A DNA stretch of 64,000 bases from Bacilli bacterium (GCA_045600585.1 JAZRYE010000003.1:772-64771), one strand, 5' to 3'; positions 10,237 through 36,008 are shown, numbered from the stretch's first letter. The notes: generated by a model from the letters alone, not told the origin. Numbers and translations are program-made.

Positions 10237-10288
10237 AATTTCTTCTTTCGAATTATTCTAACAAATAATTAGAAAAATAGATATGAAA

Positions 10289-10302
10289 ACACTTTAAAGT
10301 GT
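10289..10302. promoter_or_regulatory. Perfect 14-bp palindrome ACACTTTAAAGTGT in the uvrA upstream region
   Basis: Seen in sequence about 55 bp upstream of the uvrA start. It is not a Cheo-type (CGAAC-N4-GTTCG) LexA box. Confidence 0.3.
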
Positions 10303-10321
10303 ATTTACACGTAAAAAGAAA

Positions 10322-10336
10322 AGCATCAGTGATGCT
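10322..10336 (-). terminator. Terminator downstream of the P-loop kinase gene
   Basis: Hairpin AGCATC-AGT-GATGCT immediately after the stop, followed on the minus strand by TTTTCTTTTT. Confidence 0.45.
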
Positions 10337-10337
10337 A

Positions 10338-10871: not shown

Positions 10872-10917
10872 AATACGAAGAACAAAGAATGTCCTTGGCG
10901 CACATAGTCTAGATTAA

Positions 10918-13630: not shown

Positions 13631-13637
13631 AAAATTA

Positions 13638-14027
13638 TTATGCTCCGACTTTAGCTTGTGCTAATTCGTAGACATCTTCGCCATTTAATGCTGCTTGTTT
13701 AAGTTCTTCAACATCTTGTTCATTTAATACTTCAGCTTTAGCTAATTGTCTTGTTAATTTAGCTAAATCTTTTTTAACTTCTTTTAAATGAGCTTCGTTT
13801 TCTTTTCTAACAGCAATTTTTCTTCTAATACCAGGAAGCTTTGCTTCAGGAACATAATCGGAAATAATTTTGTTTCCTTCTCTCCACTGACGATAATAAT
13901 AAGTATGTCCAGAGATTTGTTTAACTGAAATATATCCGACTGGTAACGCCTCAATATTTTTAGAAATTTGTGCAAATTCATCTAATAAATCAGCTAATGC
14001 TTCAACTTGTCTTAATTCTTTATTCAT
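13638..14027 (-). CDS. Hypothetical coiled-coil protein (129 aa)
   Basis: ORF with a GGAG-type RBS. Lys/Glu-rich predicted coiled coil. No motif recognised. Confidence 0.4.
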   Translation of the reverse strand: MNKELRQVEALADLLDEFAQISKNIEALPVGYISVKQISGHTYYYRQWREGNKIISDYVPEAKLPGIRRKIAVRKENEAHLKEVKKDLAKLTRQLAKAEVLNEQDVEELKQAALNGEDVYELAQAKVGA

Positions 14028-14110
14028 AACTCAATCTCCTTAACCTACCAACATATTATAGAAAACAAGCAAATAATGCAACTACTTTATTATATAAAAT
14101 GATTAAAAAA

Positions 14111-14137
14111 ACAGGTAATGGATTAACCACTACCTGT
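14111..14137 (-). terminator. Terminator downstream of the PFOR gene
   Basis: ACAGGTA-N13-TACCTGT hairpin, followed on the minus strand by TTTTTTTAATC. Confidence 0.5.
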
Positions 14138-14156
14138 ATTTTATTTTAGTTAAGAA

Positions 14157-17726: not shown

Positions 17727-17751
17727 TTTTCCTCCTAAAAAGTCCGTATTA

Positions 17752-17767
17752 AGTATATAGATACTTA
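17752..17767. promoter_or_regulatory. Palindrome AAGTAT-ATAG-ATACTT in the PFOR/phosphatase divergent promoter region
   Basis: Seen in sequence 26 bp upstream of the PFOR start codon, within the 100-bp divergent intergenic region. Confidence 0.3.
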
Positions 17768-17829
17768 TAAAGATTATCAAGTAATTATATATAAATTTAT
17801 GTTATATTTAGGAAGCAGGAGACCATTAT

Positions 17830-18945
17830 ATGAACAAAATCAAGGTACTACGAATTTTATCTTTGGGTTTAATAACTGCCCAAATAAGTGCATGTGGAGA
17901 GCCATACATTAAAGTTAATTTAAATAAATTAGGTAGTAATATTTCTATTCATACTGAAAAGCAAAATCAATATATAAACGATGCCTATGACAGTTTCATA
18001 AAATACGCGAATGGAGTAGATGAATCATCTAGACCAAATCCTATTAAGTTAGTTTATAAAACTAAAAGTAATCAAAAGACCATACAATATAAGATAAAAG
18101 TATGGGAAAAAGAAGAAGCGGAAAATGTATGGAGTTTTACAACAAATAAGACTTCTTTTGACTTATACAATTGTAAAATAAATACAACATATAATTGGCA
18201 AGTTATTGCTTCTAATGGAACTATAGAACAGGAATCAGAAATCGGTGAATTTACTACTGAAAACAGCATCATTAGAAACATTTATATTGATGGCGTTACA
18301 AATGTTCGAGATATCGGAGGATTTGTAACTTCTTCAGGAAAAATAGTTAAACAAGGACTAATTTATAGAAGTGCAGCATTTAATGATTCCACTACTGCAC
18401 TAACCACTCCAGTTTCTTATATTACTGAAACAGGAAAAGGAACTGTTATTGAACAATTAAAAATCAAAACCGAAATCGATTTAAGAAAAGTTGAAAATAA
18501 TGAAATCGGTGGTTTAACGAATAAATCAGTCATTAGTGATGAAATAAATTATGTTCAATTACCAATGATTTATGAAGGAAAAGATGTCTTATTGAATAAT
18601 AAAGAGAATGTTAAAGCTCTATTTGAAATGTTTGCGGATTCAAATAACTATCCAATCAATTTCCATTGTACATGGGGAAGAGATAGAACAGGAGCGATTG
18701 CATTTGCATTAGAGGCGTTATTAGGAGTAAAAGAAGAAGATATCTATAAAGACTACTTCTTCTCGCAATTCTCTTCTCAAAAGGGCTATATATTCTCAAA
18801 AGACGCGATAAATAAATTACATTTTAAATTCATCAAAGATTATGAAGGCGATAGTCTACAAGAAAAAGCATACAATCTTTTAAAAAATGAAGAGGGAATA
18901 AGTGAAGAAACATTAAATCAAATTATTGATAACTTGCTTGAATAA
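17830..18945 (+). CDS. Lipoprotein with C-terminal CX5R protein-tyrosine/dual-specificity phosphatase domain
   Basis: Signal peptide with lipobox (ITAQISACG). PTP P-loop HCTWGRDRTGA (C-X5-R followed by T/G). The N-terminal ~150 aa is a beta-rich domain. Confidence 0.65.
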   Translation: MNKIKVLRILSLGLITAQISACGEPYIKVNLNKLGSNISIHTEKQNQYINDAYDSFIKYANGVDESSRPNPIKLVYKTKSNQKTIQYKIKVWEKEEAENVWSFTTNKTSFDLYNCKINTTYNWQVIASNGTIEQESEIGEFTTENSIIRNIYIDGVTNVRDIGGFVTSSGKIVKQGLIYRSAAFNDSTTALTTPVSYITETGKGTVIEQLKIKTEIDLRKVENNEIGGLTNKSVISDEINYVQLPMIYEGKDVLLNNKENVKALFEMFADSNNYPINFHCTWGRDRTGAIAFALEALLGVKEEDIYKDYFFSQFSSQKGYIFSKDAINKLHFKFIKDYEGDSLQEKAYNLLKNEEGISEETLNQIIDNLLE

Positions 18946-18951
18946 AAAAAT

Positions 18952-18968
18952 AGGAGCGAATCCTATTT
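18952..18968. terminator. Bidirectional terminator between convergent genes
   Basis: ATAGGA-GCGAA-TCCTAT hairpin flanked by A-runs on one side and T-runs on the other. Confidence 0.5.
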
Positions 18969-19385
18969 TTTCTTTCTTTTTGCTTGTTCTTCGTTTACCA
19001 ATCTTTTTAAGATTCGTAAGTCCGTATCACTAAGTTCAGCATTCTTGTTAACAATACCGCCAGCAATAGTTAGTTTTTTATAAATGAAATCAGCAACCGA
19101 ATCATATTCATCTAATGTCTTCTTTGTAACGGATGGTTTATGAACAGGTTTAATTTTATTTTCTTCTTGATCAACAATATATTTTTTCATTGGTTGAACA
19201 AGTTCTAATAGGTTATATTCAGGGTCCATATTAAGAAGCGGATCAAAATAGCTTAAAGTTTCTTGGATGATATCAGGATAAATTCCAACAAATTTCGACA
19301 ATTTTTCTGGAGTGATATATTTAGCTTTAATTTTAGAAATAGCGGTTAAATATTTCTTAATTGTTGTGACACTTGGTTGCTTCAT
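18963..19385 (-). CDS. Hypothetical protein (140 aa), Lys-rich C-terminus
   Basis: Low-GC ORF; nothing recognised. Confidence 0.35.
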   Translation of the reverse strand: MKQPSVTTIKKYLTAISKIKAKYITPEKLSKFVGIYPDIIQETLSYFDPLLNMDPEYNLLELVQPMKKYIVDQEENKIKPVHKPSVTKKTLDEYDSVADFIYKKLTIAGGIVNKNAELSDTDLRILKRLVNEEQAKRKKK

Positions 19386-19852
19386 AAGTAGTACTTCCTT
19401 ATTTATATTTTAATATATAGAGATCATTTAACAACATTAAATATTTAAAAGAAAAAAACACGACTTTCATCGTGTTTTACATTCAATGTCTTTGTTGAAT
19501 ACAAATAATACATACTTTTTGCAAAAAGTGAATGGAACCAATACATAAAATCAGTGATTTTCGGTAGTTCGATTCTGCTTATATGGCAAATTCAACAAGG
19601 TTTTGAGGTCTCTTTTAAAGGACAGAGACCGTGACCTATTCGGTAGCCTCCGAATAAGCGTACGGCTATCTATTACGGCCCATAGGTACTTGAATGCCGG
19701 ACATCACCATAACTTAGTGTCATCTGGGAAGCGCTCTAGAATCGCTTGCCCTTATTATATATTAAAGGAAAGAGGAAAGACACATTTATTCAGAATTAAC
19801 TACACTTTCCGTCCTTTCAGAGTGATAGATACTAGGGAAAGGAGGGATGAAT

Positions 19853-20149
19853 ATGCTGAAACCAGGCGGAAAGAAGAAACCAAAAATCGAACCGATCCCA
19901 AGGGCGTGGCTCATCGAGTCAAGAACGGCCAAGGGGTTGACGCCGCATGATGCAGCTGAGAAGCTAGGTATGAGGCCAAACTGGTACTACCAATTGGAAA
20001 ACGGAAAGGCCGGAAGGAACCTGTCCGCATTGCAACTCAAAGACCTATCCACGGTTCTGGATATCCCGATAGAGGACGTCGTCAGGGCCGAGTGCAACTA
20101 CCTCGCTTCCATCAGAAAGAAGCAAGATGAGCGCAGGGAGAAGGCCTAA
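19853..20149 (+). CDS. XRE-family HTH regulator (island, GC-rich)
   Basis: AGGAGGG RBS, then MLKPGG... HTH region (TPHDAAEKLGMRPNWYYQLENG). First gene of the high-GC block. Confidence 0.55.
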   Translation: MLKPGGKKKPKIEPIPRAWLIESRTAKGLTPHDAAEKLGMRPNWYYQLENGKAGRNLSALQLKDLSTVLDIPIEDVVRAECNYLASIRKKQDERREKA

Positions 20150-20503: not shown

Positions 20504-20879
20504 AATTCTTCAATTCGTCTATCGTGGACTCGATTTGGACGTCGACCCAGCCGTTGAAGTCGCCATAGGTTGTGGCTATGTATGACCTAAGATCATCGCC
20601 GATCTGGGATAGGACTATTCCCTTCGCCTGCGCGAATGCCACCGCCTGGGCTTCCTTGTCGAACTTGCCAGCCTTCTTCAAGGCGTCGACGTAGGTTTGG
20701 AACACGACCCTGACGGCGTTAGTCACGATGCCGGTCGCGAGGGTTAGGTACTCGGCGGCCTTCTCGTTTTTGGTCTTGGCCTTGATCAGTTTTATCAATT
20801 CGGTCCCTCCCCAGGTGATGAGAGGGATGATGACGCACGTGCATAACGCGCTGATTACGTTTAAGAGGATATCGTTCAT
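20502..20879 (-). CDS. Putative phage holin-like protein
   Basis: 125 aa. Single N-terminal TM (LLNVISALCTCVIIPLITWGG) then an amphipathic Ala/Lys-rich tail. Last gene of a leftward phage-like module. No endolysin follows. Confidence 0.4.
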   Translation of the reverse strand: MNDILLNVISALCTCVIIPLITWGGTELIKLIKAKTKNEKAAEYLTLATGIVTNAVRVVFQTYVDALKKAGKFDKEAQAVAFAQAKGIVLSQIGDDLRSYIATTYGDFNGWVDVQIESTIDELKN

Positions 20880-21649
20880 TTGCTTGCTCCTTGTACTTTA
20901 TGGATCGCTTTGTTCTTGATGTGGGCGTCTAGTTCGGTCTCCACCTTCACTACCCTTTCGGATAGCAATGCGTAGTTCTGCTCTAGCTTGTCTAGGGATT
21001 TCTCGATCCTGTCGATGCTGGATTTGATGTATCCGATGTCGGATAGGAGAACCCCTTCGTTCTTCCCTTCGCTCCTTCTGTCGTTCTTCTCGTTTGGATT
21101 GTAGACGTTGCCTTCGATCGTCAGCTTTATAGGGACCGACCTGGAGGATAGGTTCTCCACCTCCACCGTCCCGTTGAACGAGATGGCGTACGTGTAAGGG
21201 TAAGTGTATGGGTATATCTTCCCATCGTCGGTCCTCGTCACGTTGATGACCGCGCTTTTGTTGACCAGCCAAAGCGATAGGCATTCGAGCTCTACGTTGC
21301 TTCGCAGTATGCCTGCCTCGAGCTGCGTCTTGGAGCTGGACTTGACGTTCACGTAGCAGTACTTCGTGTCCTTTAGACTATAAAATAGTCTGAGCGATTT
21401 GCTCTTGGTCACGAATTCCCTCCACTTAGTGAACCCGTCATAGCCTTCGTAAAACACAAGAGCCATCGATATGGTCTTCTGCGGTATCGTCCTTTTTATT
21501 TCGACGAACCTCGCGTCGAACTCATGGTATTCGATGTCGAATTCGAACCCAAGGTTATCGAGTGACTCTATGTCTGTCTTGTTCCTCCCGTAGCCCGTCA
21601 GCATGAAGGTGTTCTCGTTTTCGTTCACTAAATAGAATTTGCGAATCAT
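20876..21649 (-). CDS. Phage-related hypothetical protein (tail/lysis-module neighbour)
   Basis: 257 aa, GC-rich. C-terminal coiled coil (IDRIEKSLDKLEQNYALLSERVVKVETEL) like XkdW/X-type proteins that precede holins. Overlaps the holin gene by 4 bp. Confidence 0.35.
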   Translation of the reverse strand: MIRKFYLVNENENTFMLTGYGRNKTDIESLDNLGFEFDIEYHEFDARFVEIKRTIPQKTISMALVFYEGYDGFTKWREFVTKSKSLRLFYSLKDTKYCYVNVKSSSKTQLEAGILRSNVELECLSLWLVNKSAVINVTRTDDGKIYPYTYPYTYAISFNGTVEVENLSSRSVPIKLTIEGNVYNPNEKNDRRSEGKNEGVLLSDIGYIKSSIDRIEKSLDKLEQNYALLSERVVKVETELDAHIKNKAIHKVQGASK

Positions 21650-24282: not shown

Positions 24283-26382
24283 TTAATCAATGTATCCTAA
24301 GGTTGTTAAGTAGTCGTATAACGGCTCGACGAGTTCGGATATTCCATCCATCTCGTGATAGGTTTTAACCAAATCTACAACACTTGATTCTTTTGTCTTA
24401 GTTGAATAGAACGTCTTTCCACCGGAAACAGCATAAGCTCTAATTGTGAATGTTTCAGTCAATCTTGCAGGATTTGCGAATACATCGCCCAATCCGATAA
24501 CGATATATTGTTTGTTGGTGCTCTCGTCAACATATGTATTAGCGTTGTATTGGTATGCCTTTGTTCTGGAACCAGTTGCCACTTCAATGCCGTAAGATGT
24601 TGGCGAATAAGCGGAGGCAAACTCATCCATGTTGTCCGTAGCCATTCTTAATCTGAAGTCAACATCCTCAATACCGCCAGCACCATATTCGATAACAAAT
24701 GAAGCGATATATTTAATTGTTGTGGATGATGTTAAAATTGCAGAGCCATCTTTCAATTCTACGCTGATTCCATTTATTTCCTCGCCAGAATCTTTATATG
24801 CTGTTACTGAGAATACCGATGTACCAGCTCCAGAGGAAATTGTTAAAGATGCACCTTTATACAATCTGAAGTCATCTTGCTTTAGCCACCAGGCTGTGCT
24901 TGTTCCACTATTCCAGGAAAAATCGATACCGGAATCATTAGCAAACGCATCATTCAAGCTCTTCGCGGTGTTGTTTGCCACAGAGTAGTTTTCATCTGTA
25001 ATTTCACCCATCGACACTTCCGTTTCATGGTTCTCTCTAGTATCTGTGTATCTATAAGAAAGGGACATCCAGGAATTAATGAGGTCTAGATCGTTTTGTA
25101 AAGAAACATCAGCCTCGCTATTCCAAACGGCTGTGAGAATCATGCTTTCGGAAACTTGATCTGCACCAAAATCCCACAAAGTTCCATTTTCTGTTTCCCA
25201 TCCAACAAAGGAATATCCTGTTTTTGTTGGTTCAGAAGGCTCGGCAAGATAACTTCCTTCAAGAACCTCAACATCGTCTCCGTATTGAGAACCATCATTC
25301 TCGTACATAACGGTATAAAATTCCTTGCAAACAGCGCCAGAAGCGAATTGAGGAGTGTCGCCTTTATAGTTAACGAGATAACCATCGATTTGGATTTTAG
25401 CGCCTTCAGCAATTTCATGTGTTGCAGCAGCCCTGTAACAGCTGATAATATCAGCTTCATCATCAATTAAATCGAATGAAAAATTTCCGTATTGTTCAGA
25501 ATATGGGGTTGTCACTTCACCAACTTCACCGATAACCTTATATCTATATGGAGAATTGCTAGTCCCAGTTAATTCACAAACGTCCAAAGCAACAGCAGCT
25601 GAAACAGGGTCAATATTACTTGGATAAACTTTGATTGTGATTTCGTTAGATGTCTCACCCGCTGAATTTGTAGCTGCTATTGTGACTGCACCATATTTTG
25701 TTGCGGTAAACTTGTTATCAACAACTGAACCAAACCCATCTGTAACATACCAGGACAAACCATCAATTGATCCTGATGCCGTCAAATTGACAGTTTCACC
25801 AAGCATAACAACATTGGTGTCTACCGAAATTTCAAGATCATTGTCATCTGTTGCCACGGTGTAGAAAACCAAATTTCTAGCACTTCCGTCATAGTTTGTA
25901 GCGGTATCGGAATTGTAATTTCTCCAATCAGCAGCATTATAGACACCAAGATATCTATTGTTAGCATTCTTTAATGAATTATTTTCCGTATAAGTCCAAG
26001 TTTGCTTTGTTGAACTAACCCTAGTTCCGTTATTAGCTGTTGTGCCATTCAAATAATCGCCATTATCATTTTGAATATAATAAGAAGAGCCGCTTTGAGT
26101 CACCGTCCACAAATTAGACGCATCAATGCTTGAAACATCTGTGAATTCGTGAGCAACAGGACATGCACTTGTCGAAGCTTCGGTTCCTAAATAATAGGTT
26201 TTGTTCTTGTAAGTTGTTGTAATAAGCAATTTGCCAACACCAAAATCACATTCCTGATAATCAGCGCCCTCAGCTTTAACAATTTGAGGATTTTTAAGCT
26301 CAAAAAAACGACTGCCAGTGTATCCTATGGCACCGAAAGCCATGAACGCTGCAGCAGTCACAAGTAATAATTTTTTCTTCAT
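24283..26382 (-). CDS. Secreted 699-aa surface protein with Listeria-Bacteroides (flg_new) repeat domain
   Basis: N-terminal signal/TM. A YSFVGWETENGTLWDFGADQVSESMILTAVW segment matches the GYtFxGW...LyAkW repeat. The rest is beta-rich, Thr/Ser/Asn-rich. Confidence 0.55.
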   Translation of the reverse strand: MKKKLLLVTAAAFMAFGAIGYTGSRFFELKNPQIVKAEGADYQECDFGVGKLLITTTYKNKTYYLGTEASTSACPVAHEFTDVSSIDASNLWTVTQSGSSYYIQNDNGDYLNGTTANNGTRVSSTKQTWTYTENNSLKNANNRYLGVYNAADWRNYNSDTATNYDGSARNLVFYTVATDDNDLEISVDTNVVMLGETVNLTASGSIDGLSWYVTDGFGSVVDNKFTATKYGAVTIAATNSAGETSNEITIKVYPSNIDPVSAAVALDVCELTGTSNSPYRYKVIGEVGEVTTPYSEQYGNFSFDLIDDEADIISCYRAAATHEIAEGAKIQIDGYLVNYKGDTPQFASGAVCKEFYTVMYENDGSQYGDDVEVLEGSYLAEPSEPTKTGYSFVGWETENGTLWDFGADQVSESMILTAVWNSEADVSLQNDLDLINSWMSLSYRYTDTRENHETEVSMGEITDENYSVANNTAKSLNDAFANDSGIDFSWNSGTSTAWWLKQDDFRLYKGASLTISSGAGTSVFSVTAYKDSGEEINGISVELKDGSAILTSSTTIKYIASFVIEYGAGGIEDVDFRLRMATDNMDEFASAYSPTSYGIEVATGSRTKAYQYNANTYVDESTNKQYIVIGLGDVFANPARLTETFTIRAYAVSGGKTFYSTKTKESSVVDLVKTYHEMDGISELVEPLYDYLTTLGYID

Positions 26383-26597
26383 AAATTACCCCTTTCGATA
26401 AAAACAGGCAGTAATCTATTGTCGCTTTGTTAATCGACTAGCATAGTGCGGACTTCTGGGCGCCGCGTAGAGACTCATCAACCTCTGTTACTGATGGATA
26501 TACGCCTGTACAACCACAATATACGCGCATTTTCGTTGCTGCACAAAACATTTTTTATAATTTGTTTCGATAGAATCCGCATTTTTTGACAATTGAG

Positions 26598-26637
26598 ACA
26601 TCAAAAAAATCTAGAGTGGGCCACGCTTTTTTGATGT
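26598..26637 (-). terminator. Nested inverted repeat / terminator downstream of the zinc-ribbon gene
   Basis: Outer arms ACATCAAAAAA / TTTTTTGATGT enclose the inner palindrome GTGGGCCAC. A T-run follows on the minus strand. Confidence 0.4.
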
Positions 26638-26660
26638 TTTGTGTCCCATCTAGATCGTTT

Positions 26661-27638
26661 TCATTTTTTTGTTTCTGTAACACGTCTGCGACCGTACTTA
26701 GGCCTCTTGAAGCAGACAGGGCATTTCATCATGCCCCTCGATCTCGTCCTTATCTCGCATGACCATTCCGCACCGCACGTTGGGCATTTCCAGAAAGCGA
26801 TCTTCATGCTTCCTGATCTTAGCTTTTCAGGATATAAGCCGATGGCGGCGTTCTTCTCGAAGTCCCACTCCCCCATCAGCTCCGGATGCTCGGTCCTGAA
26901 ATCGTTCATGCCGGTGAGTGTCTTGGTGTTCTTCTTCGAGCAATATGGGCAATTTACGCCTTTCTTCCTCTTTGACATCGTGCACAGGAAGCTATGGCCT
27001 TTCCTGCATGTCCACCACCTTGGGATATGGACGTCCTTGTTGTAAGGGACCTCGGATGCCTTCATTCCGTTTTTGACCGCATCGAATTCCCTGGCCAGCT
27101 TCTTATTTACGTCGGCCAGCGTGAATATTGGCCTAGGCGGCTTTTTCACTTGAATAGCCCTCTGCCCTTTGGCTGCGCGCCTTTTCGCGGTCTCCGCCTT
27201 CTGGGCCTCCATCTTGCATTTCCAGCATGTTAGATGCGTGACGAACTCCTTCGGCATCTCCCTGAGCTCATGGCCGTGCTTGCACCTGAAATAGAACCTC
27301 TGCGTCGAATTTGCGAGGACATGGGACGCGTCGATCCCGTTCTTCTCCTCGTCGAACATCTCCGCCATCTCAGGCGAAACGGTCTTTATGTCGTTGTAGC
27401 CAGGCCACACCTTCTTGTTGAGGCAATACGGGCATTCGCTGACATGTCCGTTCTTGACCCTGTTGCAGACCTGGACCCTCCAGGTATGCCCGTTCTTGCA
27501 TCTCCACCACACGTATCTGGAGCTGCCCAAAGTCAGAGTATCCAAGTCGATATCCTTATTTAATGCGCGATCAAATTCGTCGAGAAGCCTTTCGTTGTGG
27601 CTCTCTATGCACCAGTCCTTGAATAGAATCTTATCCAT
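26661..27638 (-). CDS. Multi-zinc-ribbon (treble-clef, DUF4379-like) protein
   Basis: 325 aa, GC-rich. At least four repeats of W/F-x-C-K/R-x-G-H-x-W/F ... CPYC/CWKC/CPVC modules. Confidence 0.55.
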   Translation of the reverse strand: MDKILFKDWCIESHNERLLDEFDRALNKDIDLDTLTLGSSRYVWWRCKNGHTWRVQVCNRVKNGHVSECPYCLNKKVWPGYNDIKTVSPEMAEMFDEEKNGIDASHVLANSTQRFYFRCKHGHELREMPKEFVTHLTCWKCKMEAQKAETAKRRAAKGQRAIQVKKPPRPIFTLADVNKKLAREFDAVKNGMKASEVPYNKDVHIPRWWTCRKGHSFLCTMSKRKKGVNCPYCSKKNTKTLTGMNDFRTEHPELMGEWDFEKNAAIGLYPEKLRSGSMKIAFWKCPTCGAEWSCEIRTRSRGMMKCPVCFKRPKYGRRRVTETKK

Positions 27639-27720
27639 ATGTCTATTATAGGATTTTTGCGTTTTCGGAGTACAAGCGTTTTTTTAAAACTTATCCGGAG
27701 CCTTTGCCTTCCAAAATAAA

Positions 27721-27744
27721 AGACCAGATTTTGTCTTCTGGTCT
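27721..27744 (-). terminator. Terminator of the defence operon
   Basis: AGACCAGA-N8-TCTGGTCT hairpin followed on the minus strand by TTTTATTTTGG. Confidence 0.5.
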
Positions 27745-27808
27745 TTAATACATAGTATTAATTATCTCTTGAACTTAAATAACTACTATTATTTCAGGTT
27801 TATTTGTC
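27745..27808 (-). promoter_or_regulatory. Repeat-element copy C (TAATACATAGTATTA)
   Basis: Palindrome at 27746-27760 plus the conserved arm (CTTGAACTTAAATAACT...ATTATTTCAGGTT). Lies between the GIY-YIG gene stop and the operon terminator. Confidence 0.5.
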
Positions 27809-28645
27809 GTTTGTAGAATCAATATCCTTTAGTTTGATTCCATCTTTATTTTCCCACTTATCATTTCCGCTTGAAGGTGTTCCTAAAACAATCGAAGCTG
27901 CTGCTGACGGGGATTTGAACTCGTAGTTTTTAGTAAACTTGTGATCGACAATTGTTCCATCGCTTTCCAGCAACTTGCGAAGAACAGGCCAACCTGGGAC
28001 GTTGGTTTCAAAAGAAGGCGTCGTGTCTTCAGATGTAATTGATCCCTTTGTGACCGTGAATCCGTTATCTGATGGGTAACCAGATGCATTAGCCTTACGT
28101 CCTTTGCAAAAAAGAAGTTTTGACTCATCAACGCTATTAGTTTTTTCTTCAAGAAAAGTGTATCCCAATGCCTTTAGAATCAACTTCATGTTTTCAATGA
28201 ATACATCGAGCATTGCTAATTCAGATTTCTTTAAGGAGAAGTTCTTATCGACTGATTTTGTGTGAAGAACAATGTCTCCATTTTTCTTCATTACGTTATA
28301 CGAATAACTTTCGATGTATTTTGCGTATGTTTCATTAAATTTTGAGTTACCAAAACAGATAGCCGTAGCCCAGTAAAAATCTTCTTTTCTCTTTTTTGAG
28401 TTATAGTCGCTTATATGAACGAGCAATCTGTCTTTAATGTTTTTAGATTCTCCGACATAAACGCCACCATCTTCGCAAAGCAAAAAATACACTCCGCACC
28501 AAGATATTTCGGGAATATCCGAATCTTTTATTTTAATACGAGGGATGCGTATCGTTTTAGTATCCCAGTTTGAAAGATCTAACGTGAGGATTCCGTCAGC
28601 TTCACCGTCTTCGAGAAACAACTCTATAGTTTTTCCGTGAGCCAT
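27800..28645 (-). CDS. GIY-YIG nuclease-domain protein with C-terminal DUF4357
   Basis: GIY-YIG core (GVYFLL...GVYVGESKNIKDRLLVH) and a C-terminal SPSAAASIVLG...W segment typical of DUF4357. Confidence 0.65.
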   Translation of the reverse strand: MAHGKTIELFLEDGEADGILTLDLSNWDTKTIRIPRIKIKDSDIPEISWCGVYFLLCEDGGVYVGESKNIKDRLLVHISDYNSKKRKEDFYWATAICFGNSKFNETYAKYIESYSYNVMKKNGDIVLHTKSVDKNFSLKKSELAMLDVFIENMKLILKALGYTFLEEKTNSVDESKLLFCKGRKANASGYPSDNGFTVTKGSITSEDTTPSFETNVPGWPVLRKLLESDGTIVDHKFTKNYEFKSPSAAASIVLGTPSSGNDKWENKDGIKLKDIDSTNDK

Positions 28646-28661
28646 AAATATTCCTCATTTA

Positions 28662-30227
28662 TTAGATAAGAACAACACTGCCAAATGGGAATGTTGTACG
28701 AATAATGTTAGCAATTTGTTTTTGTCTAGTTTCGACATATGCCTTTCTATCGGTTTCAAATTTTGCGAAATCAACAGTGTTCATGGTTGTTCTTAAAAGA
28801 GCGTCCTTTGCAATAATTGTTGTGTACTTAGGAAGTTTGACCGTGAGATAGTTGTTTGAAATGGATTTGTTAACTGATTCACAAAGTAAGAATTGATTAC
28901 CGATATTATTAATAATTTCTTTTTGGTCGGCGGTATTTGTTGGCCATCCGTTTGTAGCCCAAACCGGTTTAGGTGTTTGTGGATAAACATGTTCGAGATT
29001 AACCTTTGAAATATTGATCGTTCCAGAAGTGTTGCAAATAATAGCATCCATAACAAGTAAAGCTTTTCTAATTCCTGGAGTTGCATTTCCGGTTCCACCA
29101 ATGCTGTTAACAAAGTCAGAATATGCCATTTTGCATGAGCTAGCATTATTGTTGATATATGTTGCAATCGCTAACGAAATATCATCAGCACTTTTTCCTT
29201 GATTAATTAAATTAATCACGTCGTTCATGAGATACTTTAATAAACTTGGTAATCCACCGGTAAGACTTAATACTACACTTAACATGCACAATGGGAGTAC
29301 AACCTTTTCTAAATATTCCCTGTTTGTTGTAGTATCAATTCCTTTCATTGCTAAAACATTAAGAACATCATAAAGCGAAGTTCTATTTATATAGCAGAAC
29401 ACGGATGTGATAGGATTCTTTTCGAGTAGCGACAAAGTGTTGAGCGTTGTAACGAATTTGCTAAACTCAACACTCGATTTAGTAATGTGATCTCTCAAGA
29501 AAGTGATAATGCCAATGTTATCAAAATTCTTTGAAGCATCACCAGTTATATACTTGTAGTAACTAACTACTGCCATTTTTATATCTTTTACTTTGGCAGA
29601 GATAGGTATGTTGTAAATCTTAGAATATTGTTTAATTGCAGTTTGAATGATTTCATCTTTTGTTAATGGTTTTCCACCAGTATTTATTTGTTGGAAAATA
29701 ACGAAAGCGTCGTCAGCATTCTGACATTTTTTTAAATAAACAAAGAGATTATTTTTGAGAACATCAATGATATCACTCAATATCCCAGAATTAGTGTCAA
29801 TCCATTCTTTGAAGTGCAAATAGATGGTCTTAAATGGAGCACAAACATAATTTGTAAAATTGCATTGATACTTTGCATTGTTGTCAGCGATATCATATTC
29901 AATATCAAAGAGGTCTAGTTTAGCTAAGGGAAGAGATTTTTCGTCTATGTAATCATTGATTGCTTTAAACAAATTATTTAAAGTGACGATTCTTTGTTGG
30001 CCGTCAGCGAACATGTATTTAACGCCATCTTCATAATAAATAAAGTCGAGTAAATATAACTCCTTAGTCTTGTCGTTAACAACATCAATGATGTCCAATA
30101 ACATCTGAGTTGTTTGTGTTGGCTTCCAATCATAAAAACGTTGGAAAATTGGAATGCCGATTTTGTGTGTTGTGAGCGAATAGATATTTACATAGCTAAA
30201 TCCAACACTGCTTTTTTCAATTATCAT
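28662..30227 (-). CDS. DUF262/DUF1524 two-domain nuclease (GmrSD / SspE / BrxU-like type IV restriction family)
   Basis: N-terminal DUF262/ParB-like signature (GIPIFQRFYDWK). C-terminal DUF1524 His-Me-finger-like motifs (LEHVYPQ ... NQFLLCESVNKSISNN). Confidence 0.7.
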   Translation of the reverse strand: MIIEKSSVGFSYVNIYSLTTHKIGIPIFQRFYDWKPTQTTQMLLDIIDVVNDKTKELYLLDFIYYEDGVKYMFADGQQRIVTLNNLFKAINDYIDEKSLPLAKLDLFDIEYDIADNNAKYQCNFTNYVCAPFKTIYLHFKEWIDTNSGILSDIIDVLKNNLFVYLKKCQNADDAFVIFQQINTGGKPLTKDEIIQTAIKQYSKIYNIPISAKVKDIKMAVVSYYKYITGDASKNFDNIGIITFLRDHITKSSVEFSKFVTTLNTLSLLEKNPITSVFCYINRTSLYDVLNVLAMKGIDTTTNREYLEKVVLPLCMLSVVLSLTGGLPSLLKYLMNDVINLINQGKSADDISLAIATYINNNASSCKMAYSDFVNSIGGTGNATPGIRKALLVMDAIICNTSGTINISKVNLEHVYPQTPKPVWATNGWPTNTADQKEIINNIGNQFLLCESVNKSISNNYLTVKLPKYTTIIAKDALLRTTMNTVDFAKFETDRKAYVETRQKQIANIIRTTFPFGSVVLI

Positions 30228-30229
30228 AA

Positions 30230-30613
30230 TTATTTCCTTCCCGAATATACGATTCTTTCGCCTTTTTTAGATTCATTAATTTCAGAATATGCATCTATTC
30301 CTTTTTGATTTGCCAAGCCATCTGGATGAAAAGCATTGCTTGACCACATATTTCTATTGAGTACCCTGTATCGCTCCTGCTTATTGCTCGGTAGCTTTTG
30401 AACATAATAAGGGGGTAATTTGTCTTCATTCTCATTGAGAATTTCATAATAAACGCCTATAGCTGTGTCGCTATCGACTCTTGATGGATAAACACTCTTG
30501 ATGTCTTCAACGGCGATGTCACGCAAAATTATCCAAAAAGTATCAACATCACTTTTCTTCTCCGATGCGTTTGACAATCTCCCTATATTTTTTCTTAAAA
30601 CGTCTCCAAACAT
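30230..30613 (-). CDS. Hypothetical protein (127 aa) inside the defence operon
   Basis: Tightly packed (2-5 bp gaps) between the methyltransferase and DUF262 genes. No motif recognised. Confidence 0.4.
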   Translation of the reverse strand: MFGDVLRKNIGRLSNASEKKSDVDTFWIILRDIAVEDIKSVYPSRVDSDTAIGVYYEILNENEDKLPPYYVQKLPSNKQERYRVLNRNMWSSNAFHPDGLANQKGIDAYSEINESKKGERIVYSGRK

Positions 30614-30618
30614 AACTA

Positions 30619-31725
30619 CTATCCATCCTTTCTAAGTAAAAATAAGTATTCTGTTACATGAATATCTCTATCTCTTAAGTTTCGGCAACCCCTGAAAACA
30701 TTATAATTCTGGTCGAACACGCGGACATATCCAAGCTCATCCAGCATATTAACCATTTCGTCAAAGGTTATAAATCCTTCAGAATTGTAAGAAATCAAAA
30801 CATATGTGGCATTAACATTTCTGCAAACATCAGCTAATGCATTTAAGGCTTCTGTCTTTTTGTTATATGAAGATTTATTCCACCCAACAGGAATACCGGA
30901 AACATTAGATATCTCAGCTGGTTCTTCATAATTGGTGAGAAGATTTAGCATAAAATAATTGGAACTATAAGGATGCTGGTTATATGGAGGGTCCATATAA
31001 GCAAGATCCACGTGAGGAATCTGTCTGCAAACTTGATTTGAGTCACCCTGTAAAACGTGAACTTCGCTACTATTCATACTCAAAATCGGTTTCTTTACCT
31101 CAATATCAGCAAGGATTCTTTTGAGCGCATTACGGCCGTCACCGCCAAACTGCCCTATTTTAGTTTGTGAGTTTTTATAAAAGCCTTTGAAAACACCAGA
31201 TGTGTTATTTTTTGTAGAAGCTTCATATAAAAGAGGTGCCAACAAAAGTGTCTTATATGGTTCAGGAACTTCATCTAAATATTGTCTTGCAGTATCTAAA
31301 TATTTTGCGTTTCTGCTTGTATAGAAAACCCTTTCTCCAGCCTGGATGTTTTCATCATCTTGAGGAGCATAGAGTCTGTAAATAAATCCATTCTCATAAA
31401 GGGGTTCATTATCCAATCTGTTCTTTAGATAATTGAACCAATACTCCAACTCTTGTTGATTGATTTCGTTTTCATTTGTCAAATAACATTTATTGATTAC
31501 GCAACAATAATCTTCTAGATCGTTTGTGTACAATACTGAAGAGTGCTGTTTTAAATAACGAGAAACAACTCCAGAGCCAGCAAAAACATCAAAAGAAGTA
31601 AGACGTTCGACGCCCAATTCTTCTTTCACTAAAGATACGGCATTATCTATAAAGTCCAATAAAGATCTTTTGTTTCCTAGATAGGTAATTATTTGGTCAG
31701 TTAAAAATTCTTTTCTTTCAGCCAT
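30619..31725 (-). CDS. Dam-family (D12 class, alpha-type) N6-adenine DNA methyltransferase
   Basis: YLGNKRSLLDFI (Dam motif X, cf. WAGGKYPLLDDI), FAGSG (motif I), DPPY (motif IV). The motif order is alpha-class. Confidence 0.75.
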   Translation of the reverse strand: MAERKEFLTDQIITYLGNKRSLLDFIDNAVSLVKEELGVERLTSFDVFAGSGVVSRYLKQHSSVLYTNDLEDYCCVINKCYLTNENEINQQELEYWFNYLKNRLDNEPLYENGFIYRLYAPQDDENIQAGERVFYTSRNAKYLDTARQYLDEVPEPYKTLLLAPLLYEASTKNNTSGVFKGFYKNSQTKIGQFGGDGRNALKRILADIEVKKPILSMNSSEVHVLQGDSNQVCRQIPHVDLAYMDPPYNQHPYSSNYFMLNLLTNYEEPAEISNVSGIPVGWNKSSYNKKTEALNALADVCRNVNATYVLISYNSEGFITFDEMVNMLDELGYVRVFDQNYNVFRGCRNLRDRDIHVTEYLFLLRKDG

Positions 31726-31918
31726 TTTTTGTTACCTCCTCTAATCCCGCTTCTTTAAAAAGTTCTCTTAATTTTCTTTTTGATTTCATCGTTGGTTCAA
31801 ATAACCCTTGTTCCCAGCGGTTGACGCTTGCAAAAGAAACGCCGAGTTTTTTTGCCAATTCCTCTTGGGTACAAAGAACGATTTCACGATATTTCTTAAT
31901 CATCTCTGGATAATTCAT
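31718..31918 (-). CDS. Controller (C-protein-like) XRE HTH regulator
   Basis: Real start MNYPEM, 5 nt downstream of an AGGTGAG RBS; the ORF-track N-terminus is a non-coding leader. HTH (TQEELAKKLGVSFASVNRWEQG). Overlaps the methyltransferase start by 8 bp. Confidence 0.6.
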   Translation of the reverse strand: MNYPEMIKKYREIVLCTQEELAKKLGVSFASVNRWEQGLFEPTMKSKRKLRELFKEAGLEEVTKNG

Positions 31919-31939
31919 ATGTCTCACCTTGGATATATC

Positions 31940-31985
31940 TACACAATTATAACACTTTCTTACACAATTTACTATGTAAATAGAA
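31940..31985 (-). promoter_or_regulatory. Defence-operon promoter with C-box-like palindrome (repeat-family copy F)
   Basis: Sense strand shows an extended -10 TGTTATAAT. The palindrome TTTACATAGTAAA (31968-31980) overlaps the -35 region. This is the classic controller-protein autoregulation layout. Confidence 0.5.
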
Positions 31986-32007
31986 AAATTAAAGGGAAGC
32001 GGACGAA

Positions 32008-32436
32008 TTATGTCCTGTCTTCCCACTTCTTATTAATTCTATTAATAATCTGACTTATGTATTGCTGGCTGACTCCTGACTCAAACGCTATGTCATCCTG
32101 GGTCTTGTCCCTGAAATAGTACATAACGAAAACAGAGGACTCCCTATCCGTAAGGGAATCCTTGAATGCGACTAGGACTTTTTCTGATTCCTCCACCGCC
32201 TTTATCTTATTCTGGATTTTCATCTCCCTATCCATGAGGCCAGGCATCTTGTCGTGCCACTCATGGCGTCCGGGGATGCCGCCGTATACAGGCCCTGGGA
32301 TTGCGATCATCAATCTTCTGACTTCGGATAGGTCCTCTTCCAACCTTCTGAGCCTTACCTTGTTGAATCTCACGAAACGGGCGAATTCCTCAAGGCTACA
32401 GGCCCCAGGAATCGAATAGTCTTTCCATTCTCTCAT
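32008..32436 (-). CDS. Phage late-transcription regulator-like protein (sigma-70 region-4 / ArpU/RinA-like)
   Basis: C-terminal region-4-like HTH (SVFVMYYFRDKTQDDIAFESGVSQQYISQIINR). GC-rich. Its 3' end overlaps the start of the low-GC C-protein gene. Confidence 0.45.
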   Translation of the reverse strand: MREWKDYSIPGACSLEEFARFVRFNKVRLRRLEEDLSEVRRLMIAIPGPVYGGIPGRHEWHDKMPGLMDREMKIQNKIKAVEESEKVLVAFKDSLTDRESSVFVMYYFRDKTQDDIAFESGVSQQYISQIINRINKKWEDRT

Positions 32437-33319
32437 CGTACCCCTCCATCTGCTTCAGGTTGTCCCTATAGGCCGCCATGAAATACTCGGGGACCGACGC
32501 TATCGTCTTCTTGTTTTCCACCACCCTGGCCCTCACGTACTTGAAGACCCTCATCGATAGTTCTCTCTCATAGCATCTGTCCACTTCCATAAAAAGCTCG
32601 TTGAGCTCATCGATCCTAGGCTCATAGATATCCAGGACACGGTCATGGAGAAGGCAAGCTAGATAATAATGCGCCTCGAATGGGAGTCCCCCTTTATCGT
32701 ATTTATCTTCTTTATCAGCTTTTACTTTACCTTTTACTTTTACTTTTACTTTGTGTACCTCTGCTGACATAAATGCACCTTGAGCAGGATTATTGTCTGC
32801 ATTTATTCCGCTGAGCGGTATTTCTGTCGGCATTAACTCCCCCTGAGCGGGATTATCGTCGACATTTATCCCCTTCGATGTTTTTTCGCCCGAACCGTAT
32901 GTTTTGTATACCGATTCCTCGTCTTCCGGGGTCAATATCCAGTGCGGGCGCTCCCTCTGCTTCCTCCTTTGGGTGCTGGCCAGGAACTGCTTCTGGATTC
33001 CCTTTGAGGTGATTATCCCCTTATCCAGCGACAATGAATCTATGATGTCGAGCTTCACGAAATCCCTCAGAATCCTATAGACGTAATCCAGGTCCTTGTT
33101 CGCTTCCTTGAACCTGATGTCGTATGAGATGAGATACGCCATCCTCTCCAAATCGCACTCCAAAAAATACCCGCTGTCATAGACCTTCGCGAGCAGCATG
33201 AAATAAACCATCACCGCGTCAGGGCCATGGTCGTACATGAGCCTCACTATCTTGGGGTCGCTGAACACCTTCACGTCCACCGGAAAATAATCGAGCCCTT
33301 CCTTCAATCTTCTGGGCAT
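32396..33319 (-). CDS. Phage replisome-organizer N-terminal domain protein (Lin1244/DUF4373-like)
   Basis: N-terminal FPVDVKVFSDPKIVRLMYDHGPDAVMVYFMLLAKVYDSGYF matches the phage replisome-organizer N-terminal family. Confidence 0.5.
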   Translation of the reverse strand: MPRRLKEGLDYFPVDVKVFSDPKIVRLMYDHGPDAVMVYFMLLAKVYDSGYFLECDLERMAYLISYDIRFKEANKDLDYVYRILRDFVKLDIIDSLSLDKGIITSKGIQKQFLASTQRRKQRERPHWILTPEDEESVYKTYGSGEKTSKGINVDDNPAQGELMPTEIPLSGINADNNPAQGAFMSAEVHKVKVKVKGKVKADKEDKYDKGGLPFEAHYYLACLLHDRVLDIYEPRIDELNELFMEVDRCYERELSMRVFKYVRARVVENKKTIASVPEYFMAAYRDNLKQMEGYDERMERLFDSWGL

Positions 33320-33351
33320 GGCCTTTCCTCCTTTCTTGTAAGAGGGATGGA

Positions 33352-33415
33352 AACCTAAATACTATGTATTAGACATTGTCTCCATCCCCTTGGACTTAAG
33401 TAACTGACATTATTT
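33352..33415 (-). promoter_or_regulatory. Repeat-element copy D (AATACTATGTATT)
   Basis: Palindrome at 33358-33370 plus the conserved arm (CTTGGACTTAAGTAACTGACATTATTTGC), 35 bp upstream of the replisome-organizer start. Confidence 0.5.
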
Positions 33416-33551
33416 GCTCTTGTTTTTTAAGAGGTCTTTCCTGATGAACGCGTCCACTTCGGATTGCTTGAATCTGTATGTGGTGCCCTTGGCTGGGTGA
33501 AGGTTCACGGGAACTATCTTCCCCTCCTTGATGAACGCCGTCATCCTCTTT
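33412..33551 (-). pseudogene. Excisionase-family HTH fragment (wing half only) fused out of frame to the integrase fragment
   Basis: Frame +1 relative to the integrase encodes MTAFIKEGKIVPVNLHPAKGTTYRFKQSEVDAFIRKDLL (Xis/AlpA-like wing). The N-terminal helix is absent. Confidence 0.4.
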
Positions 33552-34109
33552 CTTGCCTCTGATGTAGACGTAGGTCTTCCCGCTTAGGCTTAGGAAATCC
33601 TGGACTTCCATGTTCGCTATCTCAATGGTCCTAAGGCCCATAGTGACAGCGGTGACGAGCATCGCGTAGTCCCTCTTCTCGATGAGTCCGCCTTTTTCGG
33701 CTCTCCCCCTCGCATATGCTAGAAGCCTTCTTGCGTCGGGCGCTTCCAAAGGGACCCTCTTGAAAAGGTTGTCGATGTGCTCGCTTCTGAGCGTGCTAGC
33801 GATGTTCGGGTAATAGTCGAGTTCGTACGCCCATTTGTATAGGCCCCTGACTATGACCTTGCACTTCTGCGCCATCGTGAGGTGCGTTTCTCCCGGCTTG
33901 ATGCACTTGATGAATTCGATGAAAGCGATGACGTTTTCTTCTAATGGTTTTTCAATGTTTCTGTCCTTGAGGTACTTCCCGTATCTTCTAAGAATCTCGC
34001 TATATGTCTTCTTCTTGTGCTCGCTGCCGGACAAGCACATGATGTACTTCTCGATGAGCTCGTCGTGCGGAAGAGCGTCTTCCAGCAGTTCTTTTCTTGT
34101 TATCTTCAT
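33540..34109 (-). pseudogene. Truncated tyrosine integrase (N-terminal SAM-like domain + box I only)
   Basis: About 190 aa covering the SAM-like domain and the R-box (AMLVTAVTMGLRTIEIANMEVQDF). The HxxR and catalytic Tyr region are missing. The frame switches to the Xis-like fragment after VYIRGK. Confidence 0.6.
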
Positions 34110-35742
34110 GGTTATGTCTCCTCAAGAAAAGAATTGGATTCAAGAACATGATAGACGACGCGGTCGCCGGCAAGATAGACCTCATCCTGGTCAAGTCGAT
34201 AAGCAGATTCGCGAGGAACACCGTGGACTGCCTGAAGACAATCAGGACGCTAAGGAGCTGCAACGTCGAGGTCTTCTTCGACAAGGAGAACCTATCGACC
34301 AACGACACGAAGGTAGACATCATCCTCACCTTCTTCGCCTCGTTCGCCCAAGAGGAATCCAAATCCATAAGCGAGAACGTCAAATGGGGCGTCAGGAAGA
34401 GGATGCTCAAGGGCCAAAGGAAAATGTCCACGAAGACGCTTATCGGCTACACAGAGGACGAAAATGGGAACATCATCATCAAAGATGACGAGGCCAAAAC
34501 GATAAGGGACATATTCAAGAGGCGAGGAGCGTCAGCCAGAACGTGAGCTGGAGGAACGACAAGAACAGAATGGTCGGAAGATACTACCTCCCCGCAAAGC
34601 AGATGGTCGGCTTCGACTTCGACGAGAGCGGCGATGTGATAGTCAACGAGAAAGAGGCCGTATACATCAACAAGCTCTACGACATGTACCTAGAAGGCGT
34701 CTCCTTCCCGGACATGTGCAAGATGATGAACGAAAGCGGGATAAGCACGGTCACAGGCGGCCCATGGGTCCCCGTCTCGATCAGATGCATTCTAAAGAAT
34801 GAGAAGTACTGCGGAGACTGCATCATGCAGAAGGAATACGTGGAGGACTTCAAGACCCACAAAAGGGTCAGGAACTACGGCGAAAGGAACATGATCTACG
34901 TCCAGGACGGCCACCCGGCAATAGTCTCCAGGGACAAATGGAGAATGGTCCAGGAAAGGATGAGGCAGAACCGTGCGAGGTACTGCAGCAGGACGATGTA
35001 CGACGGGGTTCAGCCAAACGCCCCTACCACGCCTTTCACCAAGTTCTTTTACTGCCCTTACTGCGGCCACAACTACCAGATCAAGACGAACAAGCACAGC
35101 GAATACAGCACCGCCCACAATCACGAGAGGAAATTCATAGTCTGCGGCTCCAACGTAAGGAAGAAGCAATGCACGGAAAGCACATCCATATTCCTGGAAA
35201 CCGTAACGGAGGCAATAAAGGCGCAGCTGGATATTCTTAAGAATAACCTATCGCCTTTGAAAGAATTCATCACGGATGGTTTGTCCGAAATCAACGTCCA
35301 CGAAATCAATGATGAGATTGTCGTCCTTGACTCCAAAATCGATAAGCTGAGAGGCAAATACGACTCCATCAGGCAAAAGTATGACGAGTTCTCAATTGCA
35401 TTGAAAACGCACATAAAAAACGAAATCCATGCACTAACCAAGGATAAAATAAGAAAGCAAACCGCTCTCTTATCCTCAGAAGAGGCGTCCTTCAGGGCCA
35501 ACGACATAATCAAGGCCATCAAAAAAATGCCTGCAGTCATTGACGACTTGCAGGACATCGATTTCAGGTCCGTGTTCTCAAGATGCATTGTAAAAGACAA
35601 GAAAACACTTATATTTGTTATTGGTAACGAGGATGTTTCAGGGATTAGGCTTAACTCTAAAACCTCATTCAATGGAAGAGTTGAATACAAAATAAGAGCC
35701 ACTACTAACTATTTGGAATTCGGATTGATCATAGCGAAATAA
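34097..35742 (+). pseudogene. Large serine recombinase, N-terminally truncated and frame-broken
   Basis: Begins mid-resolvase domain (LILVKSISRFARNTVDCLKTIR...FAQEESKSISENV); the catalytic Ser region is absent. The frame breaks at about 34546. The linker motif is duplicated (IIIKDDEAKTIRDIF / VIVNEKEAVYINKLY). Recombinase domain, zinc ribbon (CPYCGHNY...CGS) and coiled coil follow. Confidence 0.65.
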
Positions 35743-35932: not shown

Positions 35933-36008
35933 TGGTACCCCCTTAGGGACTCGAACCCTAGACCCACTGATTAAGAGTCAGTTGCTCTACCAACTGAGCT
36001 AAGGGGAT
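35933..36008 (-). tRNA. tRNA-Lys (anticodon CUU)
   Basis: 76-nt cloverleaf read by hand: acceptor ATCCCCT/AGGGGGT, D-arm GCTCAGTTGGTAGAGC, anticodon stem ACTGA/TCAGT with loop CTCTTAA (CUU), T-arm TAGGG-TTCGAGT-CCCTA, encoded CCA. Confidence 0.85.

Follow-up and report, generated by a model that had tools for sequence, protein, structure and literature searches.

A conserved three-gene module pairs a GmrSD-family nuclease with an adenine methylase and a small protein at a Bacilli locus

RESULTS

Five closely packed genes on one strand

The 64,000-nt stretch of DNA from a Bacilli bacterium analyzed here (GCA_045600585.1 JAZRYE010000003.1:772-64771; the window) carries on its minus strand, between 27.7 and 32.0 kb, five consecutive and closely spaced open reading frames (ORFs), as seen in the ORF listing of the window (Table 1). 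In the direction of transcription, they encode a helix-turn-helix (HTH) regulator of the XRE type, a D12-class adenine methyltransferase (the methylase), a protein of 127 amino acids (aa; the small protein), a GmrSD-family protein, and a protein with a GIY-YIG and a DUF4357 domain (gene 5). The middle three form a conserved module. With a probability of roughly 0.55, we read the module as a methylation-blocked, host-protecting restriction-modification (RM) system in which a GmrSD nuclease works with a new small partner subunit and an XRE controller stands in front.

Successive genes are joined by an 8-nt overlap (HTH gene and methylase) and by gaps of 5, 2, and 16 nt, with a ribosome-binding site before each gene. 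This bears out the five tightly packed genes described in an earlier account of the window made from sequence alone (the sequence-only reading). Its domain calls (HTH, D12, DUF262/DUF1524, and GIY-YIG/DUF4357) were all confirmed by a Pfam hidden Markov model (HMM) search, and the hairpin terminator that it placed behind the last gene is likewise present.

Table 1. Genes and control elements of the five-gene cassette, in window coordinates
Feature	Position	Strand	Evidence
XRE/HTH_3 regulator, controller-like, 66 aa	31718..31918	-	Pfam HTH_3 9.4e-10; PADLOC Control_protein 1.2e-4
D12-class N6-adenine DNA methyltransferase, 368 aa	30619..31725	-	Pfam MethyltransfD12 1.3e-21; PADLOC MTase_II 4.8e-116
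Small protein, 127 aa, middle gene of module	30230..30613	-	No match in Pfam, NCBIfam, PADLOC, or PDB
GmrSD-family protein, 521 aa, DUF262 NTPase + DUF1524 HNH	28662..30227	-	Pfam GmrSD_N 7.7e-19, GmrSD_C 4.9e-09
GIY-YIG + C-terminal DUF4357 protein, 281 aa (gene 5)	27800..28645	-	Pfam GIY-YIG 8e-07, DUF4357 9e-14; PADLOC PDC-S14 2.7e-69
Terminator-like hairpin, then TATTTTGG T-run	27719..27746	-	10 pairs (4 G-C), loop of 8
Putative promoter and candidate operator	31940..31980	-	Sequence reading and repeat finder

Methylase, small protein, and GmrSD nuclease form the conserved unit

Related loci were assembled from exact-protein look-ups, 21 GTDB species genomes, and 34 metagenome contigs, the window proteins being searched by tblastn. 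An exact-sequence look-up with the small protein of the window itself gave no contig. They represent 57 distinct small-gene DNA sequences, from which the counts given below for the HTH gene and gene 5 are drawn. The methylase gene lies immediately upstream of the small gene at all 60 loci with room to judge, and the GmrSD gene follows immediately downstream at 60 of 61, the exception (L012) having a disrupted N terminus. The conserved unit is composed of three genes, encoding the D12 methylase, the 127-aa protein, and the GmrSD nuclease. Elsewhere too, the module genes are coupled by overlaps or 2- to 5-nt gaps, and a divergent branch (L070 and L071) keeps the three-gene order with a GmrSD protein that is just 22% identical to that of the window. 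At L007, HTH gene, methylase, small gene, and GmrSD gene stand alone among housekeeping genes (rpsB-tsf-pyrH-frr on one side and rpsO on the other), and the module is therefore autonomous. The hosts are mostly metagenome-assembled genomes (MAGs) of gut and rumen Bacillota, belonging to Bacilli, Erysipelotrichaceae, Acholeplasmatales, Christensenellaceae, and Clostridia.

We found no description of this three-gene arrangement in the literature searched on GmrSD plus methyltransferase, HEC-06, DUF4357, and PDC-S14, a search that did not extend to REBASE or DefenseFinder. The reviews and primary papers covered portray GmrSD-like enzymes as standing alone or linked to Ssp, not as paired with an N6-methyladenine (m6A) methylase.

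The methylase is related to that of a classical type II pair

The methylase bears FAGSG and DPPY motifs, and D245-P246-P247-Y248 as well as F48, G50, S51, and G52 are invariant in the methylase alignment (A2). With the S-adenosylmethionine-binding and catalytic (DPPY) motifs intact, the protein is predicted to be active. It belongs to a large family (at least 8,000 matches) in which its closest homologue is 84% identical. The nearest annotated relative (49% identity), encoded on Paracoccus marcusii plasmid pCP157_17, branches outside the module methylases in a neighbor-joining tree, and its gene is followed, with a stop/start overlap, by that of a type II restriction enzyme of the Pfam EcoRI family. 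In the module, the small protein and the GmrSD protein therefore fill the slot of the classical restriction enzyme. This agrees with the earlier description of a controller and a Dam-class methylase forming an RM front end that lacks a classical restriction enzyme.

As to specificity, neither sequence nor profile searches of the PDB returned a solved relative of the methylase, and the NCBIfam Dam match was far below the cutoff. Among 4-nt palindromes, GATC and CATG, both targets of adenine methylation and of restriction, show the strongest, though modest, depletion in the host flanks (window positions 1 to 19900 and 36100 to 64000, counted against a second-order expectation), with an observed/expected ratio of 0.66 each that is not diagnostic of specificity.

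The GmrSD protein keeps the motifs of its family

In the window protein, DGQQR is found at residues 75 to 79 and LEHVYP at 411 to 416, and across 46 nonredundant loci the motifs FQRxYxW, DGQQR, QINTGGK, and NLEHxYP are at least 95% conserved. We presume that the GmrSD protein is the effector nuclease of the module. The PADLOC models HEC-06, Orf5, and SspE match it in part only. The best HEC-06 match (4.4e-27) is split into two or three partial stretches and comes without Hma surroundings, and SspE is matched in the PDB only marginally (E about 5e-3). Membership of a known multigene system was considered and rejected in three cases. For Ssp/Dnd, the partial SspE match concerns the GmrSD protein only, and the neighbors are methylase, HTH, sigma-like, and DUF4379 genes, with no ssp or dnd genes among them. 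For BREX, components are missing according to PADLOC. For MADS, the HTH protein gave a weak mad1 match (6e-4), and the other four proteins are without a mad match.

The small protein belongs to an uncharacterized family and has a candidate recognition helix

The databases listed in Table 1 (PADLOC in version 2.0) contain no match to the 127-aa protein. It has 253 homologues at 90% clustering, none of them named and the closest 91% identical, and only 37 clusters matched when 1.84 billion representative proteins were searched exhaustively with an HMM. Structure prediction gave a confident AlphaFold2 model (predicted local distance difference test [pLDDT] score, 94.8) that is weakly winged-helix-like. 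The invariant residues (R83, R87, N88, S92, N93, and G99 to Q103) are located in predicted helix 81-90 and its downstream loop, and the modeled helix is consistent with a recognition helix.

A fusion of the small domain to a C-terminal HNH nuclease occurs in two relatives (P0261 and P0264), and the HNH tail of such a fusion matches PADLOC mREase_IV (3e-08). The P0261 gene lies directly after a complete methylase-small-GmrSD module in L035. There, six overlapping genes (2937-10047) encode methylase, small protein, GmrSD, the P0261 fusion, a GIY-YIG protein with an Nhi-like/SLFN helicase, and a PDC-S61 protein, a pile of nucleases behind a single methylase. In an AT-rich branch, the C terminus is lengthened in P0262, P0266, and P0267 by about 90 residues that include CxC…CxxC cysteines, and P0277 (166 aa) has a shorter tail in which the full cysteine motif is not present. 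The P0266 gene is flanked by those of a D12 methylase and a strongly divergent GmrSD protein (L070, 1315-1980; also L071).

Two roles for the small protein were considered and rejected. It does not qualify as a tiny restriction enzyme, being without a nuclease domain or fold and giving an hhalign probability of 1% against the EcoRI-family enzyme of pCP157_17. Nor does it appear to be an operator-binding regulator, since no upstream k-mer was shared above shuffled controls among 42 loci, the sole enriched 9-mer being confined to the subgroup with a divergent HTH gene.

The HTH regulator is optional and its control region lacks a palindromic C-box

Upstream of the HTH gene lies an extended -10 box (TGTTATAAT, 31954-31946). 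This part of the promoter proposed by the sequence-only reading stands, and a good -35 element is missing: TAGTAA (31974-31969), at a 17-nt spacing, is poor, and TTTACA is 23 nt away. Overall, the promoter scan returned 13 sites against 17.9 expected in shuffled sequence, that is, no excess, so the promoter call rests on position and the TGn motif and not on statistics. A palindromic C-box, also proposed earlier, was not recovered. The repeat finder detected no inverted repeat in 31900-32020, and a 5+5 mini-palindrome (TTTAC-ATA-GTAAA, 31980-31968) is discernible by eye only. Instead, the finder revealed a 9-nt direct repeat, AATTGTGTA, at 31969-31961 and 31948-31940 (21-nt spacing), between the copies of which lies a degenerate third copy, AAAGTGTTA, at 31957-31949. 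The three direct repeats flank or overlap the -10 box and look like an operator for autorepression. The start of the HTH gene was set at the ATG preceded by a GGTGA ribosome-binding site; the mechanical ORF list gives a 102-aa form starting at GTG that overlaps the upstream gene.

Among the 44 related loci with at least 400 nt upstream, a related HTH gene was found on the same strand in 10 and a divergently oriented one in 11, and none was detected in the remaining 23. The regulator is an optional component of the module. HTH regulators are typical companions of systems with a toxic nuclease. In the divergent-HTH loci L012, L016, and L017, repeated AATCAAGGAAACCTTTG or AATCAAAGAAACCTTGATT operator-like elements lie between regulator and methylase, and in L031, L055, L056, and L060, a GAGAC…GTCTC inverted repeat (GATAC in L060) overlaps the ribosome-binding site of the same-strand HTH gene. 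Regulatory solutions vary between lineages of the module.

Gene 5 has a history of its own

The match of gene 5 to the PADLOC family PDC-S14 covers residues 1 to 276 and is full length. Of the 36 loci with downstream sequence of 1 kb or more, L011 alone has a GIY-YIG/DUF4357 gene, which there is convergent to the module and encodes a protein 28% identical to that of the window. Of the five-gene arrangement, whose recurrence in other genomes the sequence-only reading had named as a check, it is the three-gene core that recurs; among these 36 loci, a GIY-YIG/DUF4357 gene accompanies it in L011 only. The nearest homologue of gene 5 is 54% identical, compared with 91% for the small protein and 84% for the methylase, and its close relatives are solitary, located beside a type I RM shufflon (L074 and L075) or among housekeeping genes (L076). 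As judged from these comparisons, gene 5 is a separate single-gene nuclease module of the PDC-S14 candidate family that is appended to the transcript here. The L011 contig (4,775 nt) consists entirely of the same five gene families as the cassette in the window. Its label, a Candidatus Peribacteria MAG, is odd among Bacillota hosts and may be a binning artifact.

The AlphaFold2 model of gene 5 (pLDDT, 88.8) matches the GIY-YIG domains of UvrC, T4 EndoII, I-TevI, Eco29kI, and PD-T4-3. Pfam RAMA (PF18755) gives a weak match to the DUF4357 region (E = 0.11), and the domain may have a RAMA-like fold. GIY-YIG-RAMA fusions have been flagged as uncharacterized candidate m6A-reading type IV enzymes (PMC11037411), and fusions of DUF4357 to homologues of GmrSD and McrB are known as well (PMC4619093, PMC11090510). 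Gene 5 may be a modification-sensing, type IV-like enzyme. The literature searched reports no experimental antiphage test for the PDC-S14 family.

A cassette of host-like GC content in a decayed element

The cassette has a GC content of 34.5%, not the approximately 30% given by the sequence-only reading, and the host flanks have 33.4% and 34.5%. The neighboring DUF4379, sigma-like, and Lin1244-like genes have 47 to 52%. The cassette matches the host in GC content, and the GC-rich flanking genes of the element are the odd ones. The earlier picture of a low-GC mobile "moron" inserted in GC-rich blocks is thus upheld as to the mobile context, a degraded integrated element by a tRNA-Lys gene, and reversed as to the contrast.

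From about 19.9 to 35.9 kb, the window is occupied by an integrated element of patchwork makeup that adjoins tRNA-Lys (35933-36008) and has 43% GC overall in a host of about 34%. It carries a Dit_N distal-tail-protein gene (20876-21649), a weakly tyrosine-integrase-like ORF (33396-34109), and a serine-recombinase ORF (34543-35742) with Recombinase and Zn-ribbon domains and no Pfam match to the catalytic resolvase domain. The element looks like a decayed prophage or integrative element that hosts a cassette of host-like GC content. Flanking the cassette are genes for a protein that has four zinc fingers of the DUF4379 treble-clef type and for a sigma-70 region-4-like protein (26661-27638 and 32008-32436). 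Both families recur by the module elsewhere (sigma-like, 51% identity, L048 656-802; DUF4379, 32%, L049 4988-5608), which suggests a common family of carrier elements as the vehicle of the module. At other loci, a resolvase gene (one locus) or a PcfJ gene (another) flanks it. The phage and plasmid collections held no near-identical DNA for window positions 26000 to 35000, tblastn with the small protein as query gave no match in plasmids or phages, and a scan of viral contigs gave no relative. These searches gave no sign of a phage- or plasmid-borne module.

DISCUSSION

We propose that the methylase would place m6A on the host's own target sites and that the GmrSD-type enzyme would attack incoming DNA that is unmarked. 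The winged-helix-like small protein would be an obligatory partner of GmrSD, most likely reading the DNA site or its methylation state and thereby licensing the nuclease. The HTH protein would repress the single operon promoter via the direct repeats overlapping the -10 box. The obligate methylase neighbor would speak against a GmrSD enzyme that needs a local mark to cut. There is precedent for such behavior in this family: SspE, a nuclease of the GmrSD-like type, is linked to a self-marking modification of the host (PMC12707154), and EF_B0059 is toxic in methylation-free E. coli (PMC11322646). GmrSD nucleases can thus be tied to a self mark or act without modification. More tentatively, the small protein may represent a new class of free-standing reader that senses methylation of the target site and licenses the nuclease with which it is paired, be the nuclease a separate GmrSD protein (in trans) or an HNH domain of the same chain (in cis; P0261 and P0264). 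We consider this version quite possible, though less probable than the RM system as such.

Several points weigh against the proposed RM system. We infer the biochemical roles of the proteins, the direction of the methylation effect (block or trigger), and the part played by the small protein. Controller, methylase, and nuclease are on one transcript, which leaves no obvious delay of the nuclease upon entry into a new host. Characterized GmrSD, BrxU, and HEC-06 enzymes are modification dependent and require no methylase (10.1101/2024.01.29.577857, PMC12707154). Furthermore, two loci, L072 (4804-6305) and L073, have the methylase and the small protein without GmrSD, and a 182-aa fragment, P0265, runs from a methylase C terminus in frame into a small-protein N terminus (…FLLKKGVNMSFGDVLRKK…). 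Together, these hint that the methylase could be the primary partner of the small protein. L072 and L073 may represent either a decayed system or a small protein that works with the methylase, and P0265 may be a natural fusion or an assembly artifact. The small protein of L072 and L073 is divergent (P0252, 41% identity), and a convergent recA gene begins 43 nt after its gene. Finally, the correlations of pairwise identities across the 46 nonredundant loci (small protein-GmrSD, r = 0.77; methylase-GmrSD, 0.67; methylase-small protein, 0.54) are uncorrected for phylogeny or rate differences.

In a second RM scenario, which we consider rather unlikely, the small protein is a regulator or timing device (an antitoxin-like GmrSD inhibitor, a second controller, or a methylase cofactor) that makes methylation precede cleavage. 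With methylase, small protein, and nuclease on one transcript, a posttranscriptional delay would be needed, and in the loci where the HTH gene went undetected, some other regulator might be required. A small protein that persists with the methylase in L072 and L073, and that appears to be fused to it in P0265, would fit such a role. On the other hand, a targeting or sensor module would explain the HNH fusions P0261 and P0264 more readily than an inhibitor would, the upstream regions of 42 loci yielded no conserved k-mer even though the putative recognition helix is nearly invariant, and the small protein covaries with GmrSD more than with the methylase.

The other main rival, to our judgment still less likely, holds that GmrSD and the small protein constitute an ordinary modification-dependent type IV enzyme directed against hypermodified phage DNA, the methylase being linked but independent, either as an orphan or antirestriction enzyme or as a shield against another nuclease. 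It can draw on the biochemically characterized relatives of GmrSD, BrxU, and HEC-06, which cut modified DNA alone (10.1101/2024.01.29.577857, 10.1101/2025.02.28.640651, PMC12707154), on HEC-06 models being the best PADLOC matches, and on the clustering of defense genes in islands in general. Island clustering is, however, far looser than the adjacency found here, which (at 60 of 60 and 60 of 61 loci) goes with a fixed order and translational coupling over about 40 to 50% protein divergence. Moreover, the closest annotated relative of the methylase is the methylase of a classical M-R pair, and control by an HTH protein is typical of self-toxic nuclease systems.

The sequence-only reading had envisaged either that the GIY-YIG/DUF4357 protein or the 127-aa protein is a methylation-sensitive nuclease, with GmrSD as a separate sensor of modified DNA, or that all five genes work as one composite system. 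Both are less likely than the foregoing, and we consider a five-gene composite improbable. The five genes are cotranscribed here with a last gap of 16 nt, L011 also has a GIY-YIG/DUF4357 gene beside the module, L035 has a GIY-YIG-helicase gene after it, and the putative RAMA-like fold of DUF4357 would place it in a domain family associated with adenine methylases. Yet gene 5 is missing from 35 of the 36 loci with sufficient downstream sequence and has solitary nearest homologues of at most 54% identity, the 127-aa protein is without a nuclease motif or fold, and GmrSD is an invariant partner instead of a separate sensor. Given that gene 5 is dispensable and has a separate history, conservation lends no support to a five-gene composite. 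Least probable is a Pgl-like "mark then kill" logic in which the methylase, instead of protecting the host, puts its mark on phage DNA as it replicates, and the m6A-marked product is recognized and cut by the small protein and GmrSD: modification dependence of GmrSD relatives, m6A reading by prokaryotic winged-helix domains (PMC11037411), and the resemblance of the HNH tail of the fusion to type IV methyl-directed enzymes are in its favor, but a constitutively cotranscribed, motif-intact methylase would mark the host chromosome too, no switch component is evident, and the sister methylase belongs to a classical type II pair.

Compared with type II RM systems, the module shares with the pCP157_17 pair a homologous methylase encoded first and a translationally coupled next gene, and with controller-protein systems a small XRE-type regulator in front and a compact, mobile layout. 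It differs in that the restriction slot holds a 127-aa protein and a 521-aa GmrSD NTPase/HNH protein and not a PD-(D/E)XK enzyme, in the direct repeats that take the place of a palindromic C-box, in the single transcript for all components, and in the HTH gene being undetected or divergent at most related loci. GmrSD-type type IV enzymes have the same two-domain architecture, with DGQQR and EHxxP-type motifs that are intact in the module. Unlike the module clade, which is flanked by an adenine methylase and a small gene, they act alone on modified DNA. HEC-06 is a single gene typically found within Hachiman, type I RM, or BREX loci (Payne et al. 2024), whereas the module GmrSD comes with methylase and small protein.

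SspABCD-SspE likewise ties a GmrSD-like nuclease to a self-marking DNA modification of the host (PMC12707154). The mark of the module, however, would be m6A made by a single methylase and not the phosphorothioate made by SspABCD, and the module has an extra small protein where SspE, of about 770 aa, has its own sensing region. LlaJI-type systems have McrBC-like restriction proteins that, in the company of methylases, cleave unmodified sites, so that there, too, a "type IV" NTPase-nuclease has been recruited into a modification-protected system with cognate methylases (PMC12707154). The nucleases are unrelated (an AAA+ GTPase/PD-(D/E)XK protein in LlaJI, compared with the ParB-like DUF262/HNH protein of the module), and the LlaJI methylases make 5-methylcytosine. 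Winged-helix- or RAMA-nuclease m6A-dependent type IV enzymes (the DpnI and HhiV4I families and GIY-YIG-RAMA, PMC11037411) combine a small reader-like domain with HNH or GIY-YIG. Gene 5, with GIY-YIG and a putatively RAMA-like domain, and the small domain, in its fusions to HNH, resemble them. With PDC-S14, gene 5 shares the full-length HMM match and the solitary setting of its relatives; it differs in being cotranscribed here behind another system.

In conclusion, a GmrSD enzyme, an m6A methylase, and a new small protein are strictly locked together in the module. To our knowledge, GmrSD-type enzymes are regarded as type IV enzymes that stand alone and depend on modification, with SspE as the one known exception. 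If the proposed RM system is correct, the GmrSD chassis has been recruited into classical discrimination of self and nonself by methylation, in an RM architecture that annotation pipelines would split into an orphan methylase, a hypothetical protein, and a type IV enzyme, and the small protein is the founder of a new family that probably couples recognition of DNA or its methylation to nucleases. The more tentative reader model, if true, would make a modification-blocked enzyme out of a "type IV" nuclease family and define a three-component RM type outside types I to IV. Gene 5, which joins a GIY-YIG nuclease domain to a putatively RAMA-like one, would be a candidate m6A-related nuclease in its own right. 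Compact at about 3.3 kb, the module occurs for the most part in uncultured Bacillota of the gut and rumen and thus bears on the genetic tractability of such organisms.

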